Under the pieces are notes generated by a model that saw only the letters and a list, made by a program, of their open reading frames with translations, made no database searches and had not been told where the DNA came from. DNA of 29,073 bases, from the IMG/VR virus record IMGVR_UViG_2778261396_000002. One strand, 5' to 3'. Source of the DNA: a virus. Lineage: Duplodnaviria; Heunggongvirae; Uroviricota; Caudoviricetes. Each line of letters opens with the position of its first letter. The stretch's first letter is position 1. The translations under genes and the position numbers were made by a program. Positions 1 through 27,662 of this stretch are shown piece by piece.

Positions 1-107
1 GGCAGCACCTGGCACGGCTGGGACGGAAGTCGCTGTCGTTCTCAAAATCGGTGGAGCTGCATGACAAAGTCATCGGGCATTATCTGAACATAAAACACTA
101 TCAATAA
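1..107 (+). CDS. insB: IS1 InsB transposase, C-terminal fragment (5' end outside window)
   Basis: In-frame translation from position 3 gives [34 protein letters not shown] then TAA at 105-107, the recalled InsB C-terminus. Confidence 0.75.
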
Positions 108-122
108 GTTGGAGTCATTACC
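1..122 (+). mobile_element. IS1 right end (partial; element continues beyond window start); terminal inverted repeat GGTAATGACTCCAACTTATTGAT present as its reverse complement at 100-122
   Basis: Positions 1-122 match the 3'-terminal ~120 bp of IS1 as I recall it (…CAGCACCTGGCACGGCTGGGACGGAAGTCGCTGTCGTTCTCAAAATCGGTGGAGCTGCATGACAAAGTCATCGGGCATTATCTGAACATAAAACACTATCAATAAGTTGGAGTCATTACC); from memory, not database-verified. Confidence 0.85.
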
Positions 123-1571
123 GATGTCAGAATGCTGATTAACCAGGGTATTTCCCGCGTAGTTCCAGATGAACTTAATGGGCACATCCAGTTTATCTTT
201 GCCGCGGACGCCGTCGCGGATTGCCGTCATTTGCGGACCATGATCGATAGCATCTGTCCAGCTGAAGCAGGAGATTGACGTTTTGACCGGATTATCCAGC
301 ACCGGCAGGCGCTCTATGGTAATGGTATAGGTCGACTCACGCGCGCCACTATTTCCGCCGCTGATGCCGACATTGCCCGTCAAAATAGGCAACATAGCAA
401 TAGCGCGTGCAGTCAGCTCGCCGTTTGCCTGGCGTTGCGGCCCCCAGCCCTGGCAGATATAAGCGGGTTTTGCTGTGCCAATTTCACGCGCCAGTTTGAT
501 GATACGGTCTACCGGGATACCGGTAATTTGCGAAGCCCACTGCGGCGTTTTCGCTGTTTTATCGTCACCTTCACCAAGAATATAGGCTTTATAGTGACCA
601 TTTTTTGGTGCATCTGCGGGTAAGGTTTTTTCGTCATAGCCGACGCAGTATTTATCGAGAAAAGGTTGATCAACGAGATTTTCGTTAATCAATACCCAGG
701 CAATCCCCGCAACCAGCGCGGCATCGGTGCCCGGGCGAATAGGAAGCCATTCATCTTCACGACCAGCAGCCGTATCGGTATATCGCGGATCGATAACAAT
801 CATTTTGGCGTTCGATTTCTCGCGCGCTTTTTCAAGAAGATAAGTGATGCCACCGCCGCTCATGCGGGTTTCTGCCGGGTTGTTACCAAACATCACGACC
901 AGCTTGCTGTTTTCAATATCCGTGGTGCTGTTGCCATCATTACTGCCGTAGGTGTAGGGCATGGCACAGGAAATTTGCGCGGTGCTGTAGGAGCCATACT
1001 GATTGAGTGAACCGCCGTAGCAGTTCATCAGGCGTTTGACCGCCGAGGCTGATGGCGAAGAGCGGGTCATATTGCCGCCAACAATCCCCGAAGAGTACTG
1101 AATATATACAGCCTCATTGCCATATTGTTCGACGGTTTTTTTCAGGCTACTGGCGATAGTATCCAGGGCTTCATCCCAGCTAATCCGTTCGAATTTGCCT
1201 TCACCGCGTTTACCCACGCGTTTCATTGGGTAATTCAAGCGATCGGGATGATTAATACGCCGGCGGATGGAGCGACCGCGCAAACAGGCGCGTACCTGAT
1301 GGTTGCCGTACTCATCGCTGCCGGTATTGTCAGTTTCCACCCAGGTCACTTCATTATCTTTAACATGTAGACGAAGTGCACAGCGGCTACCACAGTTGAC
1401 GGAACAGGCACCCCAGACCACTTTTTCGCGGGCCTGTTGTACCGCTGCTGCTGCACTGCGCAGGGTAAACGGCAAAGAAAAACCGCCTGCAGCCAGCGCC
1501 AGAGAACCTATCGCGGTAGATTTAACGAGTGTTCTGCGGCTGATGCCCACCATTCGTTCATATTTGGACAT
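123..1571 (-). pseudogene. ynfE: DMSO-reductase-family molybdopterin oxidoreductase catalytic subunit (YnfE-like), N-terminal 483 codons, interrupted by IS1 at position 122/123
   Basis: ORF 42..1571(-) starts MSKYERMVGISRRTLVKS… with twin-arginine (SRRTLVK) signal and Cys-rich N-terminal cluster; family members are ~800 aa; frame runs into IS1 sequence after …TLVNQHSDI; position next to ynfD. Confidence 0.8.
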
Positions 1572-1769
1572 AACTCACTCCCTGTTCTTTATCGTTATAT
1601 AAAAGTTTATATATTGAATATTTAGCGCGCTAACAATAGAGTGAGTCTACCCATTTTGGGTTAAGAATTATTAATCCATATCAATAGAAGGGTATGAGTA
1701 ATAAGGTGGGATTATGTTGTATGTTCAAATCGCCGGATGTGTCGTATCCGGCGTTCAGTCGATAATGTA

Positions 1770-3966: not shown

Positions 3967-4293
3967 ATGATTAAAACAACGTTACTATTTTTTGCTACTG
4001 CGCTGTGTGAAATTATTGGATGCTTTCTGCCCTGGTTGTGGTTAAAACGAAACGCCAGTATCTGGCTGTTGCTTCCGGCGGGGATTTCACTGGCGCTGTT
4101 TGTTTGGTTGTTAACGTTGCATCCTGCGGCGAGTGGGCGTGTTTACGCGGCTTATGGTGGCGTTTATGTCTGCACGGCGTTGATGTGGCTGCGCGTTGTG
4201 GATGGCGTGAAACTAAGTCTTTATGACTGGACGGGGGCGTTGATTGCGCTTTGCGGCATGTTGATCATTGTTGCGGGCTGGGGGCGCACGTAG
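3967..4293 (+). CDS. ynfA: UPF0060 inner-membrane protein YnfA (108 aa)
   Basis: ORF 3958..4293 (GTG) contains [26 protein letters not shown]… hydrophobic 4-TM protein; ATG at 3967. Confidence 0.85.
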
Positions 4294-4498
4294 GAACATA
4301 AATCCATTTTATCAATAAGATACGAGGAAGTGTCAGCTGACAAAAGGTATTCTATTTCATCTTTTGTCAACCATTCACAGCGCAAATATACGCCTTTTTT
4401 TGTGATCACTCCGGCTTTTTTCGATCTTCATACTTGTATGGTAGTAGTTCAGCTGCGTAGATTTCATGCATCACGACAAGCGATGCAAGGAATCGAAC

Positions 4499-5713
4499 AT
4501 GAAGATCGTAAAGGCTGAAGTTTTTGTTACCTGTCCGGGGCGTAATTTCGTCACGTTAAAAATCACCACTGAGGACGGTATTACGGGCCTTGGGGATGCC
4601 ACCCTCAATGGACGTGAGCTTTCCGTGGCCTCTTATTTGCAGGATCACCTTTGTCCGCAGCTTATTGGTCGCGATGCGCACCGTATCGAAGATATCTGGC
4701 AGTTTTTCTATAAAGGTGCTTACTGGCGTCGCGGTCCGGTTACGATGTCGGCCATTTCAGCGGTTGATATGGCGCTGTGGGATATTAAAGCCAAAGCTGC
4801 CAACATGCCGCTTTACCAGTTACTCGGCGGCGCGTCTCGTGAAGGGGTGATGGTTTATTGCCATACCACCGGTCACAGTATTGATGAAGCTCTGGATGAT
4901 TATGCCCGTCATCAGGAGCTGGGATTCAAAGCCATCCGCGTGCAGTGCGGAATCCCTGGTATGAAAACCACCTACGGCATGTCGAAAGGTAAAGGTCTGG
5001 CTTATGAACCCGCAACCAAAGGACAGTGGCCGGAAGAGCAGCTGTGGTCGACGGAGAAATACCTCGATTTCATGCCGAAATTGTTTGACGCGGTACGTAA
5101 CAAGTTTGGTTTTAATGAACATTTGCTGCATGACATGCACCATCGCTTAACGCCTATTGAAGCGGCGCGCTTTGGTAAAAGCATTGAAGATTATCGCATG
5201 TTCTGGATGGAAGACCCGACGCCTGCGGAAAACCAGGAATGCTTCCGTCTCATTCGCCAACATACCGTCACACCCATCGCAGTGGGTGAAGTCTTCAACA
5301 GCATCTGGGACTGCAAACAACTGATTGAAGAGCAACTCATCGATTATATCCGCACCACGCTGACCCATGCAGGCGGAATTACCGGTATGCGCCGGATTGC
5401 CGATTTTGCTTCGCTGTATCAGGTACGTACTGGCTCACACGGTCCTTCCGATTTGTCACCAGTCTGCATGGCTGCGGCGCTGCACTTTGATCTGTGGGTC
5501 CCCAATTTCGGTGTCCAGGAATACATGGGTTATTCCGAACAAATGCTCGAAGTCTTCCCGCACAACTGGACTTTCGATAACGGCTATATGCATCCGGGAG
5601 ACAAACCGGGTCTTGGTATCGAATTCGATGAAAAGCTGGCGGCGAAATATCCCTATGAACCTGCTTATCTACCAGTCGCACGTCTGGAAGATGGCACGCT
5701 GTGGAACTGGTAA
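4499..5713 (+). CDS. rspA: Starvation-sensing protein RspA, enolase-superfamily mannonate dehydratase-like (404 aa)
   Basis: ORF 4466..5713; internal ATG 4499 with AAGGAA SD gives [40 protein letters not shown]…. Confidence 0.9.
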
Positions 5714-6931: not shown

Positions 6932-8227
6932 TTAATTTTTCATTGCTTCGTTATGGGGCATGGTTGGGGCAAACTCGCTTAACTGTGTATTTAACAAAGC
7001 TACCTGTGCATTATTGTTTTCAGACATCCATTTTCCGTATACCTGAAATACCATTTGCGCATCTGCATGGCCCATCTGGTTTGCTATAAATGCCGGGTTA
7101 GCACCAGCTGTCAGCGACCAGCAGGCATAAGTATGTCTCGACTGATATGATTTTCGATGGCGGAGTCCGGCACGTTTTATCGCTGCGTCCCACATCTGCC
7201 TTATTGAGTCAACGGTAAAATGGTCACCATAATTTTTTACTCTCGCTGACACTTCAGGTTGAAAAACAAAGGTGCATTTTTGTTTTTCTGTTCTGCCATA
7301 CTCTCTGAGGTGAACATCAATGATATGCTCTTTGCTCAGTCTCGTTAATGTCATCTGACTCCGGAGAGCGTCGATTGCTGGCTTAATAAGATGAATGACC
7401 CGATTGGTTCCCGCCTGTGTTTTTGGTACCGTGAAACGGTCTTTTGCTAAATTTCTCCTGATCATCATTGTTCCATTTTTCAGATCTATGTCCTCCCATC
7501 CAAGTGCACACAGCTCACCAGGGCGAACTCCAGTATAAACAGAAACACACCATAAATTTTTTGCTTGCTGATTTCTGCACGCATCGATAAGACGGATAAA
7601 TTCTTCCCGCGAAAGAGGATCCGGAATGGTTCTTGATTCCTTTAATGGCGAGATCCCCTTAAACGGATTATCTGCCAGGTAACCGTTATCAACACCAAAC
7701 TGGAACACGGCGTTAAGATTTGTCATGTAATTATTTACAGTTACAGCCGATCTCCCTGGTTGTGTAACAATATAGTTACTTTTGGGGATCTGGTATCCAG
7801 TCAGTAACTCTTTACGAACCTCCAGTAATTTTTCTTTATTAATCGATGAGGCAAGATTTTTTTCACCGATTATGCTCAGGATATTTTTGATGACGGCACG
7901 GTATGTGTTGAGTGATGTTTTGGCGACTTCAGTTTCTTTCAGTGCCAGAAATTTTTCAGCCAGTTCTTTTATGGTTAAATCTTGTCGGGCCTCACCAAAT
8001 TTTTCCAGATTGCGTGAGGAGGGAAACTGTTTTGCATAGTCGAAAACACCAGTTTTTATTGCGTAACAAACAGAGGAGCGTAGTTCACCTGCAACGCGCC
8101 TGTTTTTTGCTGTGTCAGGAACCCCCAGATTTTCCCTGACTCTTACGTCTTTATAAACAAACCAGATACGTAATTTCCCTCCATGGTTTTCCACGCCTGT
8201 CGGATATTTCATTTCAACTTCTCTCAT
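6932..8227 (-). CDS. intQ: Prophage tyrosine integrase (lambda-type), apparently intact, 431 aa
   Basis: ORF translation; C-terminal catalytic region …RHTYACWSLTAGANPAFIANQMGHADAQMVFQVYGKW… (R..H..Y); alternative start at Met6 (MKYPTG) with better SD. Confidence 0.88.
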   Translation of the reverse strand: MREVEMKYPTGVENHGGKLRIWFVYKDVRVRENLGVPDTAKNRRVAGELRSSVCYAIKTGVFDYAKQFPSSRNLEKFGEARQDLTIKELAEKFLALKETEVAKTSLNTYRAVIKNILSIIGEKNLASSINKEKLLEVRKELLTGYQIPKSNYIVTQPGRSAVTVNNYMTNLNAVFQFGVDNGYLADNPFKGISPLKESRTIPDPLSREEFIRLIDACRNQQAKNLWCVSVYTGVRPGELCALGWEDIDLKNGTMMIRRNLAKDRFTVPKTQAGTNRVIHLIKPAIDALRSQMTLTRLSKEHIIDVHLREYGRTEKQKCTFVFQPEVSARVKNYGDHFTVDSIRQMWDAAIKRAGLRHRKSYQSRHTYACWSLTAGANPAFIANQMGHADAQMVFQVYGKWMSENNNAQVALLNTQLSEFAPTMPHNEAMKN

Positions 8228-11685: not shown

Positions 11686-11738
11686 GGGCGGCAGAGCAGT
11701 CACGGAGTAAAACTGATACCGCCAAACGTCACCAGAAA
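11686..11738 (-). ncRNA. dicF: DicF small RNA (53 nt; ftsZ-targeting)
   Basis: Reverse complement reads TTTCTGGTGACGTTTGGCGGTATCAGTTTTACTCCGTGACTGCTCTGCCGCCC followed by T-run, matching recalled DicF; lies between ydfC and dicB. Confidence 0.85.
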
Positions 11739-17096: not shown

Positions 17097-17430
17097 ATAC
17101 AGCGAACTCCATTGGTTTAGTTGGATATTTACTGTGCTGGACAAAAACGGTTTGCGGGGAAATCTTAGTTAAGTAGAATGACTGCGGGTGCTTGAGGCTA
17201 TCTGCCTCGGGCATGGACACCAACGGCAGATAGAGAAAAGCCCCAGTTAACATTACGCGTCCTGCAAGACGCTTAACATTAATCTGAGGCCAATTTCATG
17301 CTAGACACATGTAGGTTAGCCTCTTACGTGCCGAAAGGCACGGAGAAGCAGGCTATTGTTAACACCAAGCTGTAATGTCCCCTTTGAACCATTCTAAAAT
17401 GTCCCCAGACAATTCTCTGGGGGATTTTTC

Positions 17431-24063: not shown

Positions 24064-24363
24064 AAAAATTCCTTAATACTGATAACTTGGCGCACTATAC
24101 ACACGTTCCTGAAGAAAGCTATAGTTTTTTGATGGGGTTGAAGATGGCTGGATGTCTAAAATAAACATTGCTTCATATGTTCAACTATGCGTTAATGATT
24201 GCGTCGGTTTGAAGAACAGACGATATACGAAGTAGTTTACTAAAGCAGTTCTCATTTCAGGTGTTATTCACTTATTCCTTCTTTGAGTCTCTCCAATTAA
24301 GTACGAAGTCGTTTCTGTTATGCAAACCATTTATGCCGAAAGGCTCAAGTTAAGGAATGTAGA

Positions 24364-24579
24364 ATGTCAAATAAAATGACTGGTTTAGTAAAATGGTTTA
24401 ACGCTGATAAAGGTTTCGGCTTTATTTCTCCTGTTGATGGTAGTAAAGATGTGTTTGTGCATTTTTCTGCGATTCAGAATGATAATTATCGAACCTTATT
24501 TGAAGGTCAAAAGGTTACCTTCTCTATAGAGAGTGGTCCTAAAGGTCCTGCAGCAGCAAATGTCATCATTACTGATTAA
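24364..24579 (+). CDS. cspB: Cold-shock protein CspB (71 aa)
   Basis: ORF translation [71 protein letters not shown]. Confidence 0.93.
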
Positions 24580-24861
24580 AATTCATCGCTCGTCTGTATA
24601 CGATAACGAAGAAGGCTGATGCCTGAGTAGAGATACGGACAGAGTAGTGAATATTGGATCTCTTTAATAAAAAGTAAGGAGGTCCAATACATGAAACAAT
24701 GGCTAGCATATTTGGCAAAATCTTAATCAGGAAAAGTATGCTAACCATTGTGGTGAAGTGCAGGTTTGCTGCATGAATAGTTTTACAGCAGAAGCTAACT
24801 GCTGGCATGGCAAAACAAAGTGCGTAAGTGGATGACTCCCACAAAAAGCACCACAATCTCA

Positions 24862-26888: not shown

Positions 26889-27250
26889 GGTAATATTAAA
26901 TCGGAACATTTACATCGCGGAATGTAAAATTTAAATAAAAAGGACTCTTCCATGAGCCAAAATTCCTGAAATCTTAAGGGTAAGATAAAAGGTCTTAATC
27001 AGAATGACACGTTTTATTAATAAATAAAGCTATTCTTTCATTGCTGTGTTTTTCTTTACAAAAGTAATCCTTGCTATGGGTGGTTAATCATGCGTTAATG
27101 GTGTTCTGGTTTGTTACAAATTTATCTGAAGCAGTCATTGTTATAATTTTATTATTTGTACCTCTTGAGATTTCCTTGTTGGTTTTTCTCTCTGATATTT
27201 TTTTTCGGACCATTCTGCCCAAGGGCTAATTTCTTCAAAAGGTAATAATT

Positions 27251-27463
27251 ATGTCTAACAAAATGACTGGTTTAGTGAAATGGTTTAACCCTGAAAAAGG
27301 TTTTGGTTTCATCACGCCGAAAGATGGCAGCAAAGATGTGTTTGTCCATTTCTCAGCAATTCAGAGCAACGATTTCAAAACATTAACTGAGAATCAGGAA
27401 GTTGAATTTGGTATTGAGAACGGACCTAAAGGTCCTGCCGCTGTTCATGTAGTGGCGCTTTGA
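27251..27463 (+). CDS. cspI: Cold-shock protein CspI (70 aa)
   Basis: ORF translation [70 protein letters not shown]. Confidence 0.93.
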
Positions 27464-27662
27464 GGTAGACAATATTACAAACCATATTCACTTTAGATGC
27501 CCGTGTTGTCATGGTTCCCAGTATAGAACATCATCTTTTGATGTTTCTGACATGAATCCTTTCGGGGCAAAATGTATCTTTTGTAAATCAATGATGATTA
27601 CATTTGATAATATTTCACAATACTTAAATGCCAGCCGTCTGTCGTTGGATTTAAAAAAGTGA
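27453..27662 (+). pseudogene. Zinc-ribbon ORF (paralog of 24943-25113) lacking canonical start; open frame begins inside cspI 3' end
   Basis: Frame open from TAG at 27450-27452: …HFRCPCCHGSQYRTSSFDVSDMNPFGAKCIFCKSMMITFDNISQYLNASRLSLDLKK*; first in-frame ATG (27552) lies after first Cys pair. Confidence 0.35.

Follow-up and report, generated by a model that had tools for sequence, protein, structure and literature searches.

Insertions of the transposable element IS1 are classically polar. In the classical cases, within the gal and lac operons, the gene that is hit is lost, expression of the distal genes is reduced and 9 bp of target DNA are duplicated. In E. coli, YnfEF is a selenate/tellurate reductase, and dmsD, located downstream of ynfEFGH, is required for the maturation of DmsABC (PMC12096835). 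The ynfEFGH-dmsD genes form one operon, and in Salmonella YnfE is the main selenate-reductase catalytic subunit with YnfF a minor contributor (PMC5203670). The stretch of DNA analysed here (29,073 bp, referred to below as the window) was identified by exact-protein look-up as the entire draft contig NMFK01000050.1 of assembly GCA_002543285.1, and at its left end IS1 abuts a truncated ynfE. As in gal and lac, it is the first gene of an operon that has been hit; by analogy, a polar effect on ynfFGH-dmsD would be expected here also.

For comparison, complete genomes provide four further, independent cases of IS1 in ynfE, all in this orientation. In the K-12 strain TG1 (NZ_CP128218.1, NZ_CP196935.1) the same gene carries the same IS1 isoform, as judged over the 122 bp present in the window, with the transposase likewise antisense to ynfE, which is annotated as two pseudogene pieces. 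However, the right terminal inverted repeat (IRR) follows codon 538 in TG1 and codon 483 in the window, and TG1 shows both IS1 ends, flanked by a 9-bp duplication (ATCCCATGT). Strain 1368KP has IS1 near codon 295, again with a 9-bp duplication (ATCAATACC), and in both strains the element is 768 bp long. In YZ22MPE6 (NZ_CP139339.1) the IRR follows codon 494, in the same orientation and 33 bp further along ynfE than in the window, but the element is of another isoform, and a 501-bp deletion adjoins it on the side of the left repeat (IRL), with no duplication. LF4-1 gave a query match identical to that of YZ22MPE6 and probably carries the same type of IS1 and deletion. Finally, in WP5-S17-ESBL-10 the element lies between a 3′ fragment of ynfE and a truncated ynfC, a 1,925-bp deletion having removed the ynfE 5′ end, ynfD and part of ynfC. 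As a separate observation, 1368KP carries a pair of IS1A copies separated by 2.2 kb (4075–4842 and about 7060–7830). One of them lies in ynfE and the other between ynfC and speG, and together they bracket the ynfE 5′ end, ynfD and ynfC; lying in opposite orientation, the pair forms an arrangement prone to inversion.

The initial annotation of this DNA had identified positions 1–122 as the exact 3′ end of IS1, including the InsB C-terminus and the terminal repeat, and a direct comparison bears this out. The element at 1..122 (+ strand) is IS1, represented by the right-hand 122 bp of an IS1A-type isoform (element positions 647–768). The match to the annotated 768-bp IS1A of TG1 extends over 122/122 bases (blastn E = 5e-60), and both IS1A copies of 1368KP are identical at every base; the second isoform, carried by YZ22MPE6 and WP5-S17-ESBL-10, shows 115/122 identity. 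Within this segment, 3..107 (+) encodes the last 34 codons of the transposase frame (InsB/InsAB′) and its TAA stop at 105–107, window position 107 being equivalent to the end of the annotated transposase CDS in TG1 (locus position 4107). In IS1, a programmed −1 frameshift between the InsA and InsB frames gives the InsAB′ transposase; of these frames the window covers just the last codons of insB. The 34-residue InsB fragment gave no NCBIfam match, for which it is too short. The 23-bp IRR occupies 100..122 (+) and is the same as that of the TG1 element, in which 18/23 bases of IRR and IRL pair. Of the two terminal repeats the IRR alone is present, and no further IS1 copy or other IS1-like sequence was found elsewhere in the window. 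Moreover, the IS1 terminus (...GGAGTCATTACC) ends where it does in three to four of the other independent ynfE insertions, which change to their own flanks at the identical last base.

The ynfE homology starts at base 123, and mapping onto the intact gene put the junction precisely where codon 483 of 808 meets codon 484, in agreement with the original reading that the ynfE frame enters IS1 after 483 codons. It follows that the 509-aa ORF at 42..1571 (− strand) is composed of 483 YnfE residues (123..1571, −), ending ...NQHSDI, and 26 residues read from DNA antisense to insB, followed by a TGA stop (42..122, −). The tail is thus IS1-encoded read-through, as had been proposed, and the length of about 800 residues suggested for a full-length homologue compares well with the 808 aa of intact YnfE. 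The gene order in the window, ynfE-ynfD-ynfC-speG-ynfB-ynfA-rspAB, is the same as in annotated E. coli genomes. The interrupted gene is ynfE, cut after codon 483 to 60% of its full length.

The domain content of the ORF was assessed with NCBIfam and Pfam models. The best NCBIfam model was selenate_YnfE (NF041885) with 1053 bits, followed over the same 480 residues by YnfF (872 bits) and DmsA (836 bits). Positions 2–486 of the 805 in the NF041885 profile were matched and 487–805 were unmatched, leaving the score below the cutoff of 1675 for a full-length YnfE. The ORF shows a twin-arginine motif, GISRRTLVK, as its Tat signal (SRRTLVK). Intact YnfE has an Fe4S4 domain at residues 49–108, a Molybdopterin domain at 111–566 and a Molydop_binding domain at 687–800. 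In the truncated ORF, PF04879 was found at 49–108 and PF00384 at 111–485, covering about the first 278 of its 353 positions, and PF01568 was absent, so that the product has lost the final quarter of PF00384 together with the entire MGD-binding domain. On these grounds the 509-aa ORF is best regarded as the product of a ynfE pseudogene and not as a functional member of the YnfE family. A naturally short YnfE of about 483–509 residues with an incidental resemblance to IS1 was considered and rejected. An open frame of 509 codons does exist, and nothing further speaks for this reading; against it stand the partial profile match, the score below the cutoff and the missing PF01568, together with a tail that is 100% IS1 DNA. 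Furthermore, the exact chimeric protein was found on one contig (this one) among ~15 billion proteins, with 808-aa forms on thousands, and YnfE homologues ending naturally near residue 483 do not account for it.

The site as it would have been before insertion can be seen in the closest complete genome, that of the pig isolate HCP6S3_I1, which shares 99.9% identity with the window across 11.9 kb and in which the 808-aa ynfE is uninterrupted. The empty site reads ...GCGTTTTGTT directly followed by GATGTCAGAATG... (also ...TTTTGTT followed by GATGTCAGA...). Across 123–1571 a single base differs between HCP6S3_I1 and the window, giving YnfE sequences identical at 482/483 residues (N4Y), and 123–700 is 100% identical to many E. 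coli genomes. The 9 bp beside the IRR, GATGTCAGA at 123..131, comprise ynfE codons 481–483 (S-D-I); a simple insertion would be expected to have duplicated them as its target site. The window contains this sequence as one copy, namely these codons. The G+C content of the local target is 41%, compared with 50.5% for ynfE, and a site A+T-richer than the gene overall fits the preference of IS1 for A+T-rich targets.

The ynfD-ynfE intergenic region (1572..1769, −) is intact by genome comparison, differing by one base from HCP6S3_I1 and by four from K-12 TG1. An FNR-like box, TTAATccatATCAA at 1671–1684, is invariant among them and constitutes a putative FNR site through its resemblance to the TTGAT-N4-ATCAA consensus. 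As the region is intact, the broken ynfE probably keeps its promoter. Two bases at the 5′ end of the interrupted ynfE, within 81 bp of each other, are shared with neither HCP6S3_I1 nor K-12 TG1: an AAT to TAT change at 1562, which is the N4Y substitution in the n-region of YnfE's signal peptide, and a C to A change at 1642 in the promoter region. The pair may reflect sequencing error, chance, or a relaxation of constraint once the gene had been inactivated.

Transposition of IS1 (IS1A-type) into the chromosomal ynfE of an E. coli isolate is the best explanation for this locus, with a probability of roughly 0.93. The proposed event is that an IS1A-type copy transposed into ynfE such that the IRR came to abut codon 483 and the transposase to read opposite to ynfE. 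With the promoter region intact, transcription and translation of ynfE would start normally, continue for 26 codons into IS1 antisense and end at the TGA. Under anaerobiosis, the gene would still be transcribed and would yield a 509-aa Tat-signal protein that retains the 4Fe-4S domain and about three-quarters of the molybdopterin domain and is without residues 484–808. As the missing residues include the MGD-binding domain, no molybdenum cofactor would be held and the selenate/tellurate-reductase subunit would be dead; the product, presumably unable to fold around the bis-MGD cofactor, would be retained and degraded, not exported. Loss of YnfE activity in this isolate is therefore what we infer, and the inactivation of the catalytic subunit claimed in the initial annotation is soundly inferred from the absence of PF01568 and of the last quarter of PF00384.

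The consequences may extend beyond ynfE itself. Transcription from the ynfE promoter would largely end in IS1, with a fall in the expression of ynfF, ynfG, ynfH and dmsD. Given the classical polarity of IS1, these four genes are probably expressed at a lower level from the ynfE promoter, and a polar effect on ynfFGH-dmsD is likely by analogy with the insertions described above. The original statement that inactivation leaves only the downstream paralog may accordingly be optimistic, because it ignores this probable polarity and the need for dmsD in the maturation of DmsABC.

The distribution of the junction was examined in several collections. None of 5,426 complete E. coli genomes has the IS1-ynfE junction (0/5,426). 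Neither the exact 33-mer spanning the right junction nor the predicted left-junction 31-mer (duplication plus IS1 IRL) had a match in the GTDB representative genomes and JGI metagenomes; the source assembly is in neither collection, and the two negatives accordingly indicate no more than the rarity of the allele. With the junction absent elsewhere and relatives intact, the insertion seems to be confined to this isolate and is probably recent. No account of IS1 in ynfE was found in the literature, some co-mentions having been judged incidental by title only.

Window base 1 is the end of the contig and lies inside IS1, such that just one IS1 junction, that on the IRR side, can be seen. The leftward extension of the contig proposed in the initial annotation is consequently impossible. 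E. coli genomes matching a 700-base query did so at a median of 10 places, mostly IS1 copies; a multi-copy repeat of this kind could not be crossed by the short-read assembler, and the contig therefore breaks off after 122 bp of IS1. Misjoins concentrate at such extreme ends of draft contigs, and conceivably the junction arose in assembly or belongs to a minority variant, IS1 reads having been joined wrongly to ynfE and the ynfE of the strain being in fact intact. We regard this as highly improbable. The homology switches from ynfE to IS1 exactly at the terminal base of the IRR, with no overlap and no filler, which is a signature of transposition and unlike a chimeric assembly join. Moreover, dominant reads from an intact ynfE would be expected to extend the contig through unique ynfE sequence and not into a repeat.

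A transposed IS1 can have either of two kinds of left side. In the probable case of a simple insertion, the unseen side would hold a second GATGTCAGA followed by ynfE codons 481–808 and ynfF, and the predicted left junction would read ...GCGTTTTGTTGATGTCAGA then GGTGATGCTGCCAAC, the left end of IS1, whose terminus is GGTGATGCTGCCAACTTACTG. Alternatively, the IS1 at codon 483 is tied to a deletion, an inversion or IS1–IS1 recombination; there would then be no duplication of GATGTCAGA, and the remainder of ynfE, ynfF, ynfG, ynfH or dmsD would be wholly or partly missing or displaced. Such an outcome has precedents in the 501-bp deletion adjacent to IS1 in YZ22MPE6, again without a duplication, and in the 1,925-bp deletion of WP5-S17-ESBL-10. 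IS-adjacent deletion and IS–IS recombination are common causes of missing duplications (PMC11708052), the many IS1 copies per genome are possible recombination partners, and the window shows the right side alone. With two of the four comparable events being deletions, a deletion here is a live alternative, albeit an unlikely one. The other two of the four are clean, and in long-term evolution data all five of five IS1 movements were simple and accompanied by duplications (PMC11708052). Furthermore, an event private to one isolate is recent and has left little time for secondary deletions, and it is this recency that favours a simple insertion.

Under the simple-insertion model, an in-frame TAA located 18 nt inside the IRL closes the frame, and the leftover part of ynfE would consequently be called as an N-terminally truncated YnfE without IS1-specific residues, with modelled lengths of 311, 309, 303, 288 or 272 aa. 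An exact look-up found 9/10 candidate leftover sequences, the missing one being the 309-aa form of one allele. The 311-aa form occurs on 165 contigs and one of the two 288-aa forms on 361; the ten places listed of the 165 for the 311-aa form are in other samples with unrelated lesions, none of them with this junction. The YnfF allele of HCP6S3_I1 occurs on at least 1,000 contigs.

Loss of ynfE has recurred in E. coli and Shigella. C-terminal YnfE fragments of 142–311 aa were found on hundreds of contigs, including those of S. flexneri, S. dysenteriae, S. boydii and S. sonnei, and the other lesions comprise frameshifts, deletions, a 123-bp duplication, an integrase-bearing element, a Mu-like prophage and the nonsense codon E631*. 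These pseudogenes resemble the window in the repeated inactivation of the gene, but they arose by other mutations or at other sites, and none has the junction of the window. The variety of lesions fits a dispensable gene. From the five IS1 events at different sites, the frameshifts, deletions and prophage or integrative elements, and the Shigella lineages, one could propose that some niches select for recurrent ynfE loss or for lower ynfFGH-dmsD expression caused by IS1. We think this very doubtful; equally, with hundreds of thousands of genomes sequenced, a dispensable gene of 2.4 kb may gather lesions in no smaller number.

Several of these loci merit description in their own right. E. coli 2013C-4991 (NZ_CP027355.1; locus L004, 538–5449) is 100% identical to window 123–700, and both of its paralogs are annotated as pseudogenes, ynfE through the internal stop E631* and ynfF through a frameshift. 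Six loci (L012, L017, L013, L016, L009 and L011) show other ynfE lesions just upstream of codon 498. In two unrelated samples (L012 and L017) an element encoding a tyrosine integrase of ~450 aa abuts ynfE at the same base, near position 2906; in L013 a Mu-like prophage with GemA and Mor genes adjoins the gene 3 bp from that site (junction near 2909); and the group of L016, L009 and L011 shows the 123-bp tandem duplication and internal deletions in ynfE. At least part of the clustering of lesions near codon 498 stems from the way the loci were selected, with the 311-aa fragment as query. In Shigella, YnfE fragments have been fixed in several lineages, with a 190-aa form on 138 contigs in S. dysenteriae and a 142-aa form on 100 in S. 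flexneri, and further fragments from S. boydii and S. sonnei; they fit pseudogenisation of the operon.

The event in the window is a standard, already known kind of insertional inactivation by IS1, with nothing mechanistically new, and the same IS has hit ynfE in other strains, including the widely used laboratory strain TG1. For annotation, the ynfE of this isolate should be labelled a pseudogene, and it would be wrong to take the 509-aa ORF for a new short molybdoenzyme. Metabolic and pangenome models should give this strain no credit for YnfE activity, and should treat the expression of ynfF, ynfG, ynfH and dmsD as uncertain, because dmsD is needed also for the maturation of DmsABC (PMC12096835). 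More generally, an IS stub at the edge of a window can be a mere break in a draft assembly, and one visible IS junction is insufficient to establish a simple insertion.

The opposite end of the contig (29073) lies in a lambdoid prophage, of which the left ~22 kb occupy 6900–29073 beside rspB, the site of Qin in K-12. Over 98% of its length the prophage matches Escherichia phage PhiR42_1 (PV340562.1, 48.7 kb; recorded host ECOR13) with 99.6% identity. It has an intact integrase (6932–8212, −), an excisionase and a 3′–5′ exonuclease, and therefore looks far less decayed than K-12 Qin. At Rfam gathering scores, the prophage also contains the DicF sRNA (11686–11737, −), a sok antitoxin RNA (17186–17357, +), which implies a toxin locus of the hok/sok type, and two cspA-type thermoregulator leaders (24203–24595 and 27105–27490, +) upstream of prophage cold-shock genes.
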